Source: Mycoplasmatales bacterium
GTDB lineage: Bacteria; Bacillota_I; Bacilli_A; Mycoplasmatales; G965222545
Direction: 5' to 3'
Assembly (NCBI GenBank): GCA_965222545.1
Contig: OZ244954.1
Span: 160,639-224,638 of the forward strand
DNA length: 64,000 nucleotides
Shown: in pieces, positions 2,919 to 49,208 of the stretch
Numbering within the stretch: the stretch's first letter is position 1
Layout of the letters: each line of letters begins with the position of its first letter
Position numbers and translations under genes: made by a program
Notes under the pieces: model-generated
What the model saw: the letters and a program-made list of their open reading frames with translations, nothing else
Told to the model about the DNA's origin: nothing
Databases searched by the model: none

Positions 2919-3280
2919 TGAAAAATGTTGAAACAATTGGTTTAATAGTTTTAATAATAGTAGGTATTTTAGTACTTTTATATTTATTATTTCTACTGTT
3001 CAAAATTAATAAAACTTTAAAAAAAGTCGACTATGCAGTTGACGATGTTATTTATAAACTAGATTTATTGAATCACCCGTTAGAAACTGTAAAAAAATTA
3101 TTTAATTATATTGATATCTTTGATATAGTAAGTAAAAAAAATCTTCATTCCTTGTTGAAATGATTAAAAAGAAATAACTTTGTACTTTATAAATTTATTG
3201 ATGTTGCTAAAAAAACCGTTAATAAGAATAAAAAAACTGTTTTTAAAACAACAGCTAAGAAAAAGGATATTAATAAATAA
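2918..3280 (+). CDS. Small membrane-anchored protein (DUF948/YtxG-like)
   Basis: ORF 2918..3163 continues through a TGA to TAA at 3278. One N-terminal TM helix followed by a helical tail. Start overlaps the upstream stop (TAATG). Confidence 0.45.
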
Positions 3281-3756
3281 TGAAAATATTTAAATTTATG
3301 TTTTACTCTGGACTAATTTTTAGTGGTCTTGGTGTAATGAGCGAAGATGAAGAAATGCGTAAGTATTTTAGGAGTGTTATAAAAAAACTAGAACCTCAAG
3401 CCCTTGATCTTTTGAAAAAGGTTGACTACATATTAAGTGATATTGAAAATATTAATACTGAAAAACTTGAAGTTGTAAGTAAAAATAAATATAAAGAACT
3501 TAAAAAACTTTTCGATAATATTGATGAGGAAAAAATAAAAGAACTTGGATTAATAACTATTAATAATTTTAAAAATAAACTAAATAATGCAGAAAATGAA
3601 CTTAAAACTGATAAAAGTGAAAAACCAAAAGAAGATAAAGAAGAAAAAGTTAAAAAACAAAAAAAAGAAAAAGTTAAAAAACAAAAAAAAGAAAAAGTTA
3701 AAAAACAAAAAAAAGAAAAAGTTAAAAAACAAAAAAAGAAAAAGTTAAAAAAATAA
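3280..3756 (+). CDS. YtxH-like membrane-anchored protein with Lys-rich C-terminal tandem repeat
   Basis: N-terminal hydrophobic helix, charged helical body, and EKVKKQKK repeated 4 times at the C-terminus. Confidence 0.45.
   Translation: MKIFKFMFYSGLIFSGLGVMSEDEEMRKYFRSVIKKLEPQALDLLKKVDYILSDIENINTEKLEVVSKNKYKELKKLFDNIDEEKIKELGLITINNFKNKLNNAENELKTDKSEKPKEDKEEKVKKQKKEKVKKQKKEKVKKQKKEKVKKQKKKKLKK
3643..3756 (+). repeat. 24-bp tandem repeat GAAAAAGTTAAAAAACAAAAAAAA, about 4.8 copies, inside a coding region
   Basis: Units lie at 3643-3666, 3667-3690 and 3691-3714. The fourth unit (3715-3737) has A7 instead of A8, which shifts the frame to KKKLKK-stop. Confidence 0.9.
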
Positions 3757-4562: not shown

Positions 4563-6755
4563 ATGAAAAATAAAATTTATGATATATGTTTTATTGGTAA
4601 TCCTAACGTTGGTAAATCAACAATTTTCAATACTTTATTTTCAAAACAAATATCTAAAACAGGAAATTGAAGTGGTGTTACTTGTGAAAATAAGTATACT
4701 AGTTTAATATCTAAAAATATTACTTTAAATATTATTGATTCACCAGGAATTGATTCTATTTATGAAAATAGTAATGAACAAAAAATTGCTCTAAAAAATA
4801 TTTTAAATAAAAAGACTGATCTTTTTGTTCATATAATTGATGGTACCAATCTAGAACATGATCTATATTACTCATTATTATTAAAAGAATATGGAGTTAA
4901 TTTTGTAATGGTTATAAATTTTGCAGATAAAATGGAAAAAATGAAGTTTTCAATAAATTATCAAAAACTTGAAAAAATATTTGGTACTAAAATTTTAGAA
5001 GTAACGGGATTTAATAAAAAACAAATTGGTATCTTGCCTAATTGAATAATTAGTAATATTAAAAGTAATATCAAAAAATCAAAACACTTTTTTTATTCAA
5101 ATGAATTAAATAATTATTTTTATAATGTTAAACGGAAAATAGTTAAATGTAGTAAGTTTCAAAAATTTATTTCTGAAAAATATACCAACATTAATAAGGA
5201 AGTAATAAATAATTATTACACTCTTGGTATTATTGAAAATAAATATTCACTTATGTCTAATTTATTGTTATCAAATATTGAATTTCAAGATTATTTAAAA
5301 AAAGAAAATACTAAATTAGATAGCGATGAAGTTAATATTAAAAGAGATATTTTTATCAAAAATACAATTAGTTCAGTTGTAAAAAATTATGGTTGTACTA
5401 GAAAACGATTTGCTATAAGTGCAAGAATAGATAAAATTATTTTGAATAGATATTTCGGAATGCCAATAATGCTTGGGATATTATTGTTTTTATTTATTTT
5501 AATTTTTAACTTTACCACTCCTTATAAAAATTTTATTAGTGATTTATTCACCTTATATATTCCTCAGCTTTTACACTTAAATATAAATACATGATACGGA
5601 AACTTGTTAAGTGAAGGAATTCTTAATTCCCTTGGTATTTTATTATCATTTTTACCAGTTATTTATATATTATTTATTTTAATATCAAGTTTTGAACAAA
5701 GTGGTTTAATGGACCGGGTTCGTTTTAAATTAGAAGGATTATTTAATAAAATTGGTTTAAATGGTAAATCAATTGTTCCGTTTGTGTTAGGTTTAGGATG
5801 TAATGTTGCAAGTATTTATGCAACAAAAACAATTAAGGATAAAAAAATAAGGAAAAGAACAGCACTACTATCTCCTTTTATGAGTTGTAGCGCTAGAATT
5901 GTTGTATTTTCATTATTTGCAAATTTATTTTTTGGAACAAATGCTGGACTAATTGTTTTTTCACTATATCTCTTAGGAATATTTGCTGTAATTATATTTG
6001 GATTTATTTGAACATTATTTAATAAAAAAGAAGCTAAACAAATTGCTTATAATGCTTCAATAATTGCTCCTTATAATTTGCCAAACTGAAAAGTTGTATA
6101 TCGATCAGCAAATATTAATGCAAGTGGATATGTAAAAAGAGCAGCAAGTGTTATTTTATTATTTTCTATTTTTATATGAACACTAAATTATTTCCCTATT
6201 CACAATGCAATAAAAAATCCTGATAAATCATTACTTGCGCAATTAAGATATGTTTTACAACCAATATTTACACCATTAGGATTCGGGTTAATATGGCCGT
6301 TAGCAGTTGCTATTATACCATCAATCATTGCTAAAGAAACAACAGTATCAGCGTTAGCATTATTAATTATTCCCACTGTTTCATTACATAAACAAGCACA
6401 TCCTTCTTTTTCGCATGATTTTCTTAATACATTTATTCAAAGCTTTTCAAATTTATTACCAAATCATTGATTTGGTGGTAGTGGTGTCTTTGATATTTCT
6501 CATGATAATGCACTCGGGAACGGAATAATTAGTTTTTTTAAAAATCAAAATATTAATCCTAAATTATATGGTCTTATTGGGTATTCATATATGAGTTTTA
6601 TGTTACTAACTATTCCGTGTGTCACAACCCTTGGAGCTATTAAACATGAATTTGGTTGAAAAACAATGCTTCAATCAATTTTTATTGGAATTGCTACACC
6701 TTATATCGTATCATTATTAATATTTCAAATTGGTAAACTAATTATTCTTCATTAA
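4563..6755 (+). CDS. feoB: Ferrous iron transport protein B
   Basis: N-terminal G domain GNPNVGKSTIFN followed by a polytopic gate domain. Fragments 5253.. and 5604.. share the frame with ATG 4563 and are joined only by TGA. TAA at 6753. Confidence 0.9.
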
Positions 6756-45190: not shown

Positions 45191-46846
45191 ATGAGTCAAG
45201 ATCAAAATGATTTGCTAATTATTAAGAACGCAATAGAAAGCGGCGTTAATAATGTTTCAATTCATAAACAAGAATTAAATGAACTAAATGTTTTTCCTAT
45301 TCCTGATGGTGATACTGGATATAATTTAAATGCTACACTTTTAAGTGGATGAGATGCAATTAAGAATTCAAATTATAAATCTAGAAAAATTATGTTAAAT
45401 GATTTTTCAGAAGGTTTATTGTTTGGAGCTAGAGGAAATTCAGGTGTTGTTTTTACACAAATTATAAGAGGACTTGTTAAACACATTATTAAAATACCAG
45501 TAAAGGATAAAATTAAATTTACTGATTTTTATTCTGCTTTATTAAAGTGTAAAAAGTTTGCTTATAAATCAATAAATAAACCAGTTGAAGGCACTTTATT
45601 AACTATTATTTCGGATTTAGTAAGTAAGTTACCAAAAAAAATGAAAGGTGTAAAAAACTATATTGAAGGTATTAAAATTATTGTTGATATTGCTGATAAA
45701 TCAGTTAAAAATACTCCAAATTTACTTCCTGTTTTGAAAGAAGCTGGAGTTGTTGATAGCGGGGCAAAAGGATTATATTATTTTTTAGAAGGAATCTTGT
45801 TATCAAACGAAGGTAATCCTGTTCAACTTGGTAAAAGAAGAGATGCTGTTGTAGTAGATACAGAATATAATAAAAACAACGAACTTGATTATAAACTTAC
45901 AATGTTGGGTTATTGTACTGAATTTATAATTCAGTTAAAACCAAAAATGAAAATTAATAATGTTCAGAAATTAATAACCAAAGAACTTGAGAAGTCAAAT
46001 TATAATTCATTTGTTATTTTGAATGAAAAAAAACATATTAAAGTACACGTTCATACTTTCAAACCATCTAAGGTTTTACAGTTAGCTCATAAATATGGTG
46101 AATTTATTAAAGTAAAAGTTGATAATATGACTCTTCAAAATCAACACGTACAAGAATTTAAAAATATTCACATGGGTAAATTAGATATTAATAAAACATA
46201 TGTAATTTCCTTTGTAACCGGAAATGGCTGAGGTTATATCTTGAAAAAAACAGGAATATCTAAAGTAGTTATTTATAATGGTAGTTCTATTCCCTCAGTT
46301 AAAAAAATAGTTGAATTAATAAAAAGAGCGTTAACTAAAAACATCATTATATTATCTAATAATTCAAATTTAAATATGGCAATTAATGAAGCTATAAAAA
46401 TATGTAGTAACTATAATATTTATTTAACTTCTTCATCAAATAATGGTGAGATTTATGCTGCCTTAAATTATTATAATTTAGACCTTTCGTTTAAGGATCA
46501 AAAACAGGTTTTTGAAGAAAGTATTAAAAATAGTTTAGTAGTAAATATTTCCCAAGCTTCTAAAAAATATAAAAATAATAGTGTAGAGATAATTGAAAAT
46601 GACTATATTTCTATCATTAATAGTGAAATTAAATATGCAGATAAAAATTTTAATAGATTAATTAAAAAATGTTTTTCAAAAATTAATTTAAATAAGTATG
46701 ATTTAATAACACTTTTTTATGGTACAAAAATTTCTAAAGATAAAGCCCAAAAACTAAGTGAATTTTTAGAAAATAAATATAACCTAGATATAAAAGTAAT
46801 TAAAGGAGATAATAAAATTTATTTGTATACAATAATTTTTGAATAA
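45191..46846 (+). CDS. yloV: DAK2 domain fusion protein (YloV family)
   Basis: PDGDTGYN and GARGNSGVV motifs. Fragments 45392.. and 46241.. share the frame with ATG 45191. Confidence 0.8.
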
Positions 46847-48596
46847 AATAATGAAAAAAATTGGAATAGATATATATGGATTTGATAATGGGTTTATTCA
46901 CCCTATAAAAGCAGTAATTAATTTTGCACAAAAACATTTAGATATAAAAATATTTATCTTTGGGAAAAAAGAAGATGTAAACAAGGTAACTACACAATTA
47001 GGAGTAAATATTATTGTGGTAGAAGGAGACGATAGTATAACTAGTAATGATTCATCCTTAGAATTTAGGAATAAACCGAATTCATCATTAGTTATTGGTT
47101 TAAAGTATTTATCTAAAGGTACAATTGATTTTTTTATTAGTTCAAATAATAGTTCAACTTATTTACTTGCAGCATTAACCTATATTGGTACACTAAAACC
47201 AAAAATGCGAGTTGCTTTTGCTTCATATTTTCCGACAGCTATTGACGATAAGATGGTTTTATTTTTAGATTCTGGAGCAAATTTAACACTTCAACCAGAT
47301 AGTTATTTAGAATTAGCTTTTTTATCAAGAGAAATTTTAAAAAAAATGGGAATAAATAATCCTAGCGTTGGGCTATTAAATAATGGTAATGAAGTTAATA
47401 AAGGTATTCCTGAAGTAAAAGCTGCTTACGGAAAACTTGCTAAATATAAAAATCAAATAAATTTTATTGGTAATATTGAGCCAAGACAAATATTAAAAGG
47501 AGATGCAGATATCATTTTGTGTAATGGATGAAACGGTAATATTGCAGTTAAATCAATCGAAGGAACTGCTGATGTTCTTATGTTTGATATTAAAAGACAA
47601 ATTAAAAAAATAATTAAAAACCCTCTAGTATTATGATATTTAAAGAAAGCACTAAAACCATTAAAAGAAAAATATAATGCAAATAAATATGGATTTGGAC
47701 AATTAGTGGGTCTTAAAAAACCTTGTATTAAAGTACATAGTTTTGGCGGATCTGAAAATTTTAGATATGCCTTAGAAAGTGCTTATCAACAATTACAATT
47801 AAGAAAACAAACCACTTTAACAAAAACTATCGTTGAAGATGAACAAACAATAATTAAAAAAAATTATGAAAAAATTATTCCGCTATTAAAAGAATTTAAA
47901 ATCAAACCTAAAAATATTGAATTATATGTTAAAAGTTTAACTCACTCATCTTGAACTATTGACCATAAATCATTTGAAAGTGATTTTAATTATGAAAGAC
48001 TTGAGCATAGCGGTGATAAAGCAATTAACTATTTTGTTACTAGATATTTAGATAGAACATTTCCTGAAATGGATCAGGGAACTGTTTCTAAAATTAATTC
48101 AAGAATCATCTCTAATAAAAATCTTTCAACAGTAGCAAAATTACTTAATTTTGAAAAATTTGTATTTTACGGAAAAAGTATTACTAACCCATTAAATGAT
48201 TTTTCAGATAAAATTTGAGCAAGTTTTTTTGAAGGATTTATTGGTGCTATAGTTAATGATTATAATAATGATGAAGGAAATAAAATTATTGATTTTATAG
48301 TTGAAGAAATCATAATAAAAAAAGCAAAAGAAGATGAACTTTTAACTAAAGATGATGATTATAAAACACAGTTACAAGAGTATTTAAAGCAAATAAACAA
48401 CAATATTACAATTAATTACAAAACACTAAGTGAAAACTATAAAAATAATAAGAGTTTTTTTGAAGAAGCGATTTTTATTAATGGAAAGAAAGTTATTACA
48501 GGAACAGGTACTAAGAAAATTGATATTCATCAAAAAATAGCTAAAATATATATAAATAAATTACAATCAGAAATTAAAAAAGAAATAGATAAATAA
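46839..48596 (+). CDS. plsX/rnc: In-frame fusion of phosphate acyltransferase PlsX and ribonuclease III
   Basis: One code-4 ORF of 585 codons. The PlsX part runs from IGIDIYGFDNG through CNGWNGNIAVKSIEG to FGGSENFRYALESAYQQ. About 20 linker residues follow. The RNase III part has LTHSSW, ERLEHSGDKAINYF, FEGFIGAI and a dsRBD (DYKTQLQEYL). No stop of any kind and no in-frame ATG/GTG/TTG occurs between the modules. Confidence 0.8.
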
Positions 48597-48617: not shown

Positions 48618-49208
48618 ATGGATAATGAAGAATTAGAAATAAAATTAGCATTAAAGACATTACAGCTTTCAATAGAAACTGTTACGTTAAAAAAAATTGA
48701 ATTTCAATATAAGAAATTAGCAAAAATTTATCATCCTGATAAAAATTTACGTAATAATCCAACTTTTTCTAAACTATTCTCTGATCTTAATAATGCTTAT
48801 CGTTTATTAAGGAAAAAATATTCTTTAGTTGAAAATATTAGACAAAATGCATTAATAGTTGTTGATAATAATGAAAATGAAATTATGAAAAGCAATTCTT
48901 GTAAAAGGTGTAATTCAAAATCAAGATATGAACTTTTAGATTATCGTGGTTATAAGATATGTAAAAATTGTTTTCAGTATCTTGCTTTAAGAGATCAGAA
49001 AAAATTTTTAGAAAAACAAAACCAGCTGCAAATAAATTTAAATAATAGACCAATTCCCCCTCCTGTTAATGTAAATGTTCACCAATCAAATAATCAAAAT
49101 CAATCAAATAGGGGACCAAATAAATTTATTAAATTTTTAATAATAGTTGTTATTTTATTAATAATTCTAGGAGCAATTATTACTTTAGTTTCTCATTTTT
49201 CTAAATAA
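48618..49208 (+). CDS. J-domain protein with CxxC..CxxC module and C-terminal TM anchor
   Basis: YKKLAKIYHPDKN (HPD at 48732-48740), CKRCN...CKNC, a Q/N/P-rich linker, then FLIIVVILLIILGAIITLV. Confidence 0.7.
   Translation: MDNEELEIKLALKTLQLSIETVTLKKIEFQYKKLAKIYHPDKNLRNNPTFSKLFSDLNNAYRLLRKKYSLVENIRQNALIVVDNNENEIMKSNSCKRCNSKSRYELLDYRGYKICKNCFQYLALRDQKKFLEKQNQLQINLNNRPIPPPVNVNVHQSNNQNQSNRGPNKFIKFLIIVVILLIILGAIITLVSHFSK

Follow-up and report, generated by a model that had tools for sequence, protein, structure and literature searches.

An apparent PlsX–RNase III fusion encoded in one open reading frame by a clade of uncultured Mollicutes

We found that the phospholipid-synthesis enzyme PlsX and RNase III are encoded as one uninterrupted polypeptide in a Mycoplasmatales genome of 24% G+C. 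We consider it probable, from the sequence comparisons described below, that this represents a genuine, old and selectively maintained fusion produced as one chain of 581 residues. RNase III would then most likely be produced solely as the C-terminal part of a lipid enzyme that associates with the membrane. In the window (the whole 64,000-nucleotide stretch that was analysed), positions 46851–48596 of the + strand hold this plsX::rnc gene as a single open frame of 581 codons plus TAA, including four TGA codons read as Trp (translation table 4). The modules follow one another as a complete PlsX (residues 1–322, 46851–47816), a short linker and a complete RNase III with its nuclease domain (residues 331–494, 47841–48332) and double-stranded RNA-binding domain (dsRBD; residues 495–581, 48333–48593), all on the + strand, with residue numbers referring to the 581-aa product (P0002) that starts at ATG 46851. 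PlsX, some 8 connecting residues, the nuclease domain and the dsRBD would be translated as one chain of about 67 kDa.

The original prediction had placed PlsX and RNase III on one stop-less polypeptide at 46839–48596, and its central claim held on translation with table 4: the stretch yields 585 residues without a TAA or TAG, and the ORF listing contains only one ORF at 46839..48596. The 5′ end, however, required correction. The true start is almost certainly ATG 46851 (MKKIGID...), because it matches the N-termini of the orthologues and sits 4 nt after the stop of the upstream operon neighbour, fakA (fatty acid kinase subunit A, 45191–46846, +), which was recognised by the Pfam models Dak2, FakA-like_M and FakA-like_C, all above cut-off. 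TTG 46839 was rejected as the start, as it would overlap fakA and the orthologue N-termini favour the ATG.

The same fusion was present in six further assemblies (from ENA short and long contigs and from Logan), which came from different samples and assemblers and whose proteins are 37–74% identical. A single clade holds all seven fused proteins, from deeply diverged organisms, and excludes the 11 unfused relatives with 100/100 support. Purifying selection acts on both halves: dN/dS between the window and L013 is 0.17 for PlsX and 0.09 for RNase III, against about 0.75 for the linker. Mean identity among the fused proteins is 0.51 for RNase III and 0.36 for PlsX.

A single gene could also be read as an assembly or sequencing artefact, in which a missed stop or a homopolymer indel had joined two ordinary genes. 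The base composition offers some grounds for this, as the + strand of the window carries 55 A-runs of 8 or more, one of which (A8, 47856–47863) lies in the linker. Yet the same fusion recurs, with different linker sequences, in seven assemblies that were obtained independently from different samples and by different technologies. In addition, both other frames at the A8 run are closed by TAA just before or at the run (47851–47853 and 47855–47857), as had been predicted, and a separate rnc would be without a canonical start. We give the artefact virtually no chance, and it is effectively refuted already. The earlier argument that a homopolymer error could not rescue a separate rnc was correct, and is moot given the six other fused assemblies.

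Outside the clade, no fusion turned up when 1.84 billion protein representatives were searched exhaustively. Scanning genome contigs with the fused alignment added no further fusions, and the scan of metagenome contigs gave only distant stand-alone rnc genes and unfused plsX, rnc pairs. Five matches from high-GC Coriobacteriia and Oscillospiraceae (L017–L021) were considered as fusions and rejected, since their adjacent plsX and rnc lie in different frames. On the sequences searched, the fusion occurs in only one deep clade of uncultured Mollicutes with minimal genomes. Our literature search found no description of a PlsX–RNase III fusion, which agrees, as does the protein search, with the earlier statement that no such covalent fusion had been described; the domain architecture appears to be undescribed so far, although both parts are textbook enzymes. 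Where annotation pipelines expect two genes, the locus may be split, truncated or called a pseudogene.

The PlsX half was assigned using PF02504 (167.6 bits against a cut-off of 29.1, model positions 2–316 of 324) and the stricter NCBIfam equivalog TIGR00182, which matched model positions 2–318 of 337 with a score under its cut-off (219.6 against 243.4). The resulting Pfam/NCBIfam domain spans residues 7–322 in P0001 numbering. In the AF2 model, pLDDT exceeds 88 across nearly the whole module, which contains two long stem helices (226–254 and 258–274) and a last helix at 301–322, and Foldseek aligned it to B. subtilis PlsX 6A1K with a TM of 0.87 over 322 columns. As modelled, the module has the PlsX fold with the two-helix stem that builds the four-helix bundle of the dimer. 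Compared with the PlsX proteins of B. subtilis (6A1K, 1VI1) and E. faecalis (1U7N), it shares the fold (TM 0.86–0.87, ~30% identity), whereas its N-terminal MGGD-type motif is degenerate (YGFD) and a 250-residue C-terminal RNase III has been added. Both long stem helices of the B. subtilis protein are present, and the tip (at about residues 252–260) is hydrophobic and aromatic in the fusion (NPLVLWYL). The fusion is the only PlsX of the genome, which also encodes plsY, plsC, ACP, fakB and fakA. Every part of the FakAB/PlsX/PlsY/PlsC route, by which imported fatty acids are turned into phosphatidic acid, was found, and the PlsX half would serve this route.

For the remainder of the chain, the original prediction had described a normal RNase III with a dsRBD following PlsX in frame, and domain and structure searches recovered both domains. 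The nuclease domain was identified by PF14622 (59.3 against a cut-off of 35), PF00636 (55.3 against 27) and alignments to 1O0W and 3N3W. The dsRBD was identified by structural matches, by its alpha-beta-beta-beta-alpha secondary structure at high pLDDT in the AF2 model and by PF00035 (dsrm), which at 21.4 bits falls marginally under the 23-bit cut-off. TIGR02191 aligned over model positions 2–219 of 219 with a score under its cut-off (129.9 against 166.25), and the Pfam/NCBIfam span of RNase III is residues 350–575 in P0001 numbering. Foldseek gave a TM of 0.82 to RNase III 2EZ6, with full-length RNase III matches at 0.75–0.82. According to both types of search, a single nuclease domain is followed by a single dsRBD, which is the class 1 RNase III architecture. 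The fusion shares this arrangement with the class 1 enzymes of T. maritima (1O0W), A. aeolicus (2EZ6) and E. coli (7R97), along with the fold, covered over the full model length, and the residues E38, E41, D45 and E117 (E. coli numbering throughout). It differs from them in that its N-terminus is joined to an unrelated enzyme, and it lacks the canonical or conserved near-cognate start codon of a stand-alone RNase III of ~220–250 aa. This RNase III domain is the only one in the genome.

The active site is conserved in part. The nuclease domain contains the signature ERLEHSGDK (47994–48020, +), and the equivalents of E38, E41, D45 and E117 (the last a Glu at residue 461, 48231–48233, +) are invariant in 7/7 fused proteins. 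Four of the six conserved acidic residues (E38, E41, D45, E65, D114 and E117) are therefore kept, and the RNase III half encoded here deviates at three active-site positions: F42 is replaced by H, E65 (Aquifex E64) by Q (48075–48077, +), and D114 (Aquifex D107), a metal-binding position occupied by Asp in the aligned T. maritima and C. jejuni enzymes, by S (residue 458, 48222–48224, +). Among the fused proteins, the E65 equivalent is Q in six of the seven, with E kept in P0047; the D114 equivalent is S in six and A in P0048; and the F42 equivalent is H or Y. In contrast, all 11 unfused relatives have E and D at the two acidic positions, and none of them shows any of the three changes.

These substitutions raise the question of whether RNase III is a passenger here, decaying or without catalysis, that binds dsRNA or acts as a scaffold on PlsX and is kept only through the fusion. 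The loss of the D114 equivalent in all seven proteins and of E65 in six, the H or Y at F42 and the TIGR02191 score below cut-off would all fit such decay, as would the behaviour of the E65A mutant, reported to lack activity in vivo and to show only weak activity in vitro (PMC8708148). We nevertheless consider a dead passenger unlikely, as no other part of the fusion is so well conserved as RNase III by mean identity and dN/dS, the other four acidic residues of its active site are invariant, and the genome is without any other RNase III. Moreover, D114 is the sole mutation-tolerant active-site residue of E. coli RNase III, in which E41, D45 and E117 tolerate no change; D114G has a fitness of 0.99 and cleaves 48% of substrate in a gel assay against 69% for the wild type (PMC10037077). 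The tolerance at D114 seen by deep mutational scanning in E. coli thus appears to have been explored here by natural evolution as well. Because E41, D45 and E117 are kept and the lost D114 is tolerant in E. coli, we infer that this half should remain able to cleave dsRNA, though perhaps not with full nuclease activity, given the three active-site deviations and the fact that most changes of E65 are deleterious in E. coli (PMC10037077).

We then considered whether the two halves are likely to remain joined. The AF2 model of the whole fusion has a mean pLDDT of 92.9, and residues 323–327 are its sole segment of three or more residues below 50. Considering also that DSSP assigned no helix over residues 323–330 and that these residues are unalignable in the orthologues, we delimited a disordered connector at residues 323–330 (47817–47840, +), within a variable linker that in the wider sense covers approximately residues 318–340. 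The unstructured part is only ~8 residues in the AF2 model, shorter than the 16-residue string given originally. Orthologue linkers are 19–69 aa in length and mutually unalignable, with a mean identity of 0.13, and all indels among the fused orthologues preserve the frame. Across all seven, the linkers contain no in-frame stop, ATG, GTG or TTG. The chance of a linker staying open, calculated from composition, is 0.005–0.17 per orthologue, and the openness exceeds chance because all seven are open (0 stops in 219 in-frame codons) while the other two frames contain 14 and 28 stops. Programmed slippage at the A8 run, giving a PlsX-only product, was examined and rejected, as long A-runs are ubiquitous and the position of this run is not conserved in the orthologues; a shift either way at the run meets a stop within ~10 codons.

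The same region bears on whether RNase III could be made separately. As had been predicted, no in-frame ATG, GTG or TTG occurs in this genome from the PlsX C-terminus up to the RNase III signature, and the first canonical in-frame start past the linker is the ATG at codon 407 of 581, downstream of ERLEHSGD. A fused frame could still allow free RNase III to be made as well, or for the most part, by initiation at a non-canonical internal codon, leaving the fusion protein a by-product. NCBI table 4 allows starts at ATA, ATT, ATC and TTA, and such codons lie near the module boundary in every orthologue. In the window the candidates are ATA and ATT at codons 334 and 335, a fitting place for an rnc start, or ATT at codons 342 and 343; unfused Rnc proteins begin at the corresponding place, 5–12 residues ahead of a conserved LLK motif. 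However, start-capable codons are not shared by all seven orthologues at any aligned position (the best one reads ATT, ATA, ATT, ATT, ATT, GTT, GTC), and an SD-like tetramer upstream of the candidate starts is absent in 5/7. Furthermore, linker stops would be unselected if RNase III were initiated internally, yet none occurs in the 219 linker codons against 42 in the other frames, and every indel has kept the frame. The comparative data disfavour a non-canonical internal start, and we regard this reading, with the fusion protein as a by-product, as quite unlikely, although a near-cognate start may give a minor free RNase III product.

A fused ORF does not by itself mean that the two mature proteins remain attached, and a cellular protease might cleave the translated polyprotein within the connector to give separate PlsX and RNase III of about 36 and 30 kDa. 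No other segment of the chain is of low confidence, fast-evolving and probably exposed, and linkers that are exposed are typical targets of proteases. On the other hand, the linkers, with their low identity and unalignable lengths, conserve no sequence that could serve as a specific site, and nothing in the data requires cleavage; to our knowledge, there is no precedent for such polyprotein cleavage in Mollicute housekeeping enzymes. We judge this route very unlikely.

If the chain stays intact, as in the fusion that we favour, its two halves have implications for each other. As PlsX and RNase III are both obligate homodimers, the fusion is probably dimeric, although with so short a connector one pair of chains may not satisfy both homodimer interfaces. 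The two enzymes would be present in 1:1 stoichiometry, and RNase III would be kept at the membrane. B. subtilis PlsX forms a dimer whose helical stem contacts the membrane through its tip (PMC6702220). By analogy with this membrane-binding tip, and given the hydrophobic tip sequence here, it is plausible that RNase III is tethered to the membrane through PlsX: the PlsX ‘mushroom’ would touch the membrane by the tip of its stem, and the RNase III dimer that it carries would face the cytoplasm. More tentatively, we raise the possibility that RNase III exists only as an appendage of the PlsX dimer, so that rRNA and mRNA duplexes would be processed only where phospholipids are made, and that its active site has been remodelled in adaptation to tethering. 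In such a regime the local concentration of RNase III would be high, and the changes of D114 to S, E65 to Q and F42 to H might alter metal affinity or damp activity.

RNase E is held at the membrane by an amphipathic membrane-targeting helix and RNase Y by an N-terminal transmembrane helix. The fusion would share their operating principle if its PlsX half binds the membrane as in B. subtilis, but it is a member of neither family, and in place of a short helix its anchor would be an entire lipid enzyme whose catalysis is needed. With the sole RNase III welded onto a membrane-associated lipid enzyme, the fusion represents a natural experiment relevant to the spatial organisation of bacterial RNA processing (compare RNase E and RNase Y), and to the membrane association of RNase III, for which an old and disputed report describes enrichment of the E. 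coli enzyme at the inner membrane (PMC8708148). Tethering, if true, would be a natural and obligatory link of membrane biogenesis with RNA maturation, and would supply a functional reading for the long-conserved plsX...rnc synteny of Bacillota. Were the fusion merely a tolerated accident of genome compaction and not adaptive, it would be a modest curiosity.

The unfused relatives suggest how the fusion could have arisen. None of the 40 order-level relatives carries it, and 24 of them have plsX next to rnc with an intervening stop, in keeping with the original statement that this adjacency is common in Mollicutes. Reading the junctions at the DNA level in 11 unfused relatives, a comparison that had been suggested at the outset, gave seven distinct junctions, all of which retain the plsX TAA and the rnc ATG; the two abut, overlap or lie 6–33 nt apart, and in five relatives from two families plsX and rnc are in the same frame. 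Given this stop-to-start packing, loss of one stop codon explains the origin of the fusion. The ancestor of the clade would have had plsX and rnc packed in the manner still seen in relatives, the plsX stop codon would have been lost, and the rnc start codon would have decayed afterwards.

In B. subtilis, plsX and rnc lie within fapR-plsX-fabD-fabG-acpA-rnc-smc-ftsY, and in Mollicutes without fab genes plsX directly abuts rnc. Compared with the separate plsX and rnc genes of Bacillota and Mollicutes, the fusion locus retains the same enzymes, order and strand, with fakA upstream and smc and/or ftsY downstream in several clade members, whereas the TAA and ATG that stand between the genes in relatives are both missing and one polypeptide is encoded. 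Within the clade, fakA also lies upstream of the fusion in loci L014, L016, L040 and L041. The downstream neighbour in the window is a gene for a J-domain protein (48618–49208, +; PF00226, 38 bits), which is also found after the fusion in L013 and takes the place of the smc and/or ftsY of more distant clade members (smc-ftsY in L014, ftsY in L040 and L041).

Translation under the Mycoplasma/Spiroplasma code (TGA = Trp) confirmed the original prediction that PlsX and RNase III share one stop-less frame: 46839-48596 (+) is a single ORF free of TAA and TAG, in which four TGA codons encode conserved Trp positions. It lies between fakA (45191-46846) and a J-domain protein gene (48618-49208), and holds two complete modules with no independent rnc start. 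A frame begun at TTG 46839, the start of the longest ORF, would share 8 nt with the end of fakA, whereas ATG 46851 is 4 nt past the fakA stop, begins the recorded product (P0002, 581 aa) and agrees with the starts and N-termini of the orthologues; 46851 was therefore taken as the start, and TTG 46839 was rejected. Automated gene callers may choose either start within 46839-46853. As had also been claimed, no in-frame ATG, GTG or TTG lies between the PlsX C-terminal helix and the RNase III signature, the first canonical in-frame start past the linker being codon 407, downstream of ERLEHSGD. The alternative frames around the A8 run at 47856-47863 are closed too, with a TAA directly before or at the run in both. 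The composition of the window is extreme (24% G+C; its 64 kb hold 65 A- or T-runs of at least 8, and A-runs on the + strand account for 55 of these), and homopolymer-based frameshift arguments need caution in this genome.

Both modules belong to well-known families at the Pfam and fold level, yet fall below the NCBIfam equivalog cut-offs. By Pfam, residues 7-318 are FA_synthesis/PlsX and residues ~360-484 the RNase III domain, together with a dsRBD; the NCBIfam alignments cover model positions 2-318 of 337 for PlsX and 2-219 of 219 for RNase III. In an AF2 model of the fusion (mean pLDDT 92.9 overall), the PlsX fold is intact (TM 0.87 to B. subtilis PlsX 6A1K, Foldseek), a connector of ~8 residues (323-330) is disordered, with pLDDT below 50 at 323-327, and a pTM of 0.63 leaves the relative domain orientation undefined. 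The fusion provides the sole PlsX and the sole RNase III domain of the genome, which also encodes FakA (directly upstream), FakB/DegV, PlsY, PlsC and ACP. With PlsX, which converts acyl-phosphate and acyl-ACP into each other, this set makes up a complete route by which imported fatty acid is turned into phosphatidic acid.

We searched 5.8 billion proteins with a word index and, exhaustively with phmmer, 1.84 billion cluster representatives, and found the same two-module architecture in six further proteins: P0003 (74% identity to the window's fused protein), P0004 (44%), P0006 (41%), P0005 (40%), P0048 (39%) and P0047 (37%). The remaining strong matches in both searches were nearly all PlsX of ~330 aa, and the full fusion was absent among the few longer matches inspected. 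Several assemblers produced the contigs that carry the fused genes, and these derive from four or more different samples. Two of the contigs reach 901 kb and 649 kb, and all require TGA = Trp. Since the same fusion occurs in six other assemblies, an assembly or sequencing artefact in the window was ruled out. In a maximum-likelihood tree of PlsX+Rnc, a 100/100 branch splits the seven fused sequences from 11 unfused order-level relatives, and internal branches reach ~1 change per site, which points to a single old fusion event, kept since. No fused protein was found outside this clade among the 1.84 billion representatives or in genome and metagenome contigs, and our literature search found no report of a PlsX-RNase III fusion, in line with the original prediction. 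Judged from sequence, PlsX-RNase III is a new, conserved domain architecture. One candidate, P0052 (475 aa, another lineage), was rejected as a further full fusion. It is a truncated chimera, in which PlsX without its last ~40 residues is joined directly, between ...GVNG and DSIL..., to an RNase III part lacking its N-terminus and the ERLE signature. P0052 retains the normal Asp (SILADVYES). It looks like the outcome either of an independent in-frame deletion that joined the two neighbouring genes or of chimeric assembly.

The linker, taken as the segment from the last PlsX helix to the first RNase III helix, was compared across the seven fused genes. It ranges from 19 to 69 codons, is unalignable (mean identity 0.13) and differs in length by whole codons in every case. 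None of the linkers has an in-frame stop, while the same stretches hold 14 and 28 stops in the +1 and +2 frames; from base composition, the probability of a linker staying open is 0.005-0.17 per gene. Initiation of RNase III at an internal near-cognate codon, for which the window's genome offers ATA and ATT at codons 334 and 335, would leave this absence of stops unexplained, and we consider it improbable given that comparison of the orthologues lends it no support. ATG, GTG and TTG are missing from all seven linkers, no alignment column from the linker to the P-L-L-K motif is start-capable in all seven (the best reads ATT, ATA, ATT, ATT, ATT, GTT, GTC), and no SD-like tetramer was found within 70 nt upstream in 5/7. 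Proteolytic separation of the two halves is possible, but no conserved site was seen. Compared with its closest relative (contig L013), the window's gene has a dN/dS of 0.17 in PlsX, 0.09 in RNase III and ~0.75 in the linker, which we read as the signature of two constrained modules and a translated spacer otherwise free to vary. The chain is probably made and kept as one protein.

The host genome (641,330 bp, one contig) has no other family member among the genomes compared. At the order level, 24 of 40 relatives have plsX and rnc next to each other on one strand, separated by a stop, and none of the 40 has them fused. The junctions read in 11 relatives fall into seven distinct arrangements, including TAA-ATG, overlapping TAATG, TAA-G-ATG and TAA GGA TTT ATG, others having a spacer of at most ~33 nt. 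In five relatives from two families the plsX TAA and rnc ATG are in frame, so that one substitution in the stop would yield a fusion. We propose that such a single substitution created the fused frame, and that the rnc start codon decayed afterwards, having become dispensable. Over its N-terminal helix, the fused RNase III can be aligned residue by residue with the N-terminus of the free form.

RNase III is the most conserved part of the fused protein (mean identity 0.51, versus 0.36 for PlsX), and none of the seven proteins has a change at the equivalents of E. coli E38, E41, D45 and E117. Set against all the unfused relatives examined, the fused clade is altered at three positions: D114 (Aquifex D107; window 48222-48224) is Ser in six and Ala in P0048, E65 (48075-48077) is Gln with Glu kept in P0047, and F42 (within 47994-48020) is His with Tyr in P0048. 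As the Asp is lost in 7/7 fused proteins while D and E are kept in 11/11 unfused ones, the active-site change co-occurs with the fusion. Unlike class 1 RNase III, the fused module has neither a stand-alone gene nor the full acidic sextet. In deep mutational scanning of E. coli rnc, no change was tolerated at E41, D45 or E117, whereas D114 was the one tolerant active-site residue (D114G: fitness 0.99; gel cleavage 48% versus 69% for wild type) (PMC10037077); the majority of E65 changes were harmful (PMC10037077; mutation table also in PMC8708148). With the intolerant residues kept, D114 tolerant and E65 mostly not, the fused RNase III is expected to work as a nuclease, though its activity may be weakened or its metal dependence altered. 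A module that binds dsRNA but has lost its nuclease activity is the less likely alternative, against which stand the strong conservation and the retained catalytic residues.

In B. subtilis PlsX, the tip of the stem helices is a membrane-binding amphipathic peptide (PMC6702220); the AF2 model likewise shows two long PlsX stem helices, with a hydrophobic and aromatic tip. Since PlsX and RNase III each form homodimers, the fusion protein is itself probably dimeric; its stem tip would touch the membrane, and its distal cap would carry the RNase III dimer. Membrane localisation and the activities of the fusion protein are predicted from homologues: the joined chain would fix PlsX and RNase III at 1:1 and have RNase III act at the membrane surface. 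This would be alike in principle to RNase E and RNase Y, as an RNA enzyme at the membrane, but with a different anchor, here a whole enzyme. The arrangement may be an adaptation, or genome compaction may have produced it as a by-product that the cell tolerates.

Downstream synteny has changed within the fused clade. The window (48618-49208) and L013 have a small J-domain protein gene after the fusion, while distant members keep rnc-smc-ftsY or rnc-ftsY (L014:3319-7146, L040:5769-6743, L041:6408-7406). L013 (ENA ERZ26869290 ctg299241) itself looks palindromic, with two 194-aa J-domain genes (3165-3749 (+) and 6092-6676 (-)) and flanking genes in mirror orientation, a pattern suggestive of a genuine inverted repeat or of an artefact in which assembly duplicated and inverted the sequence.
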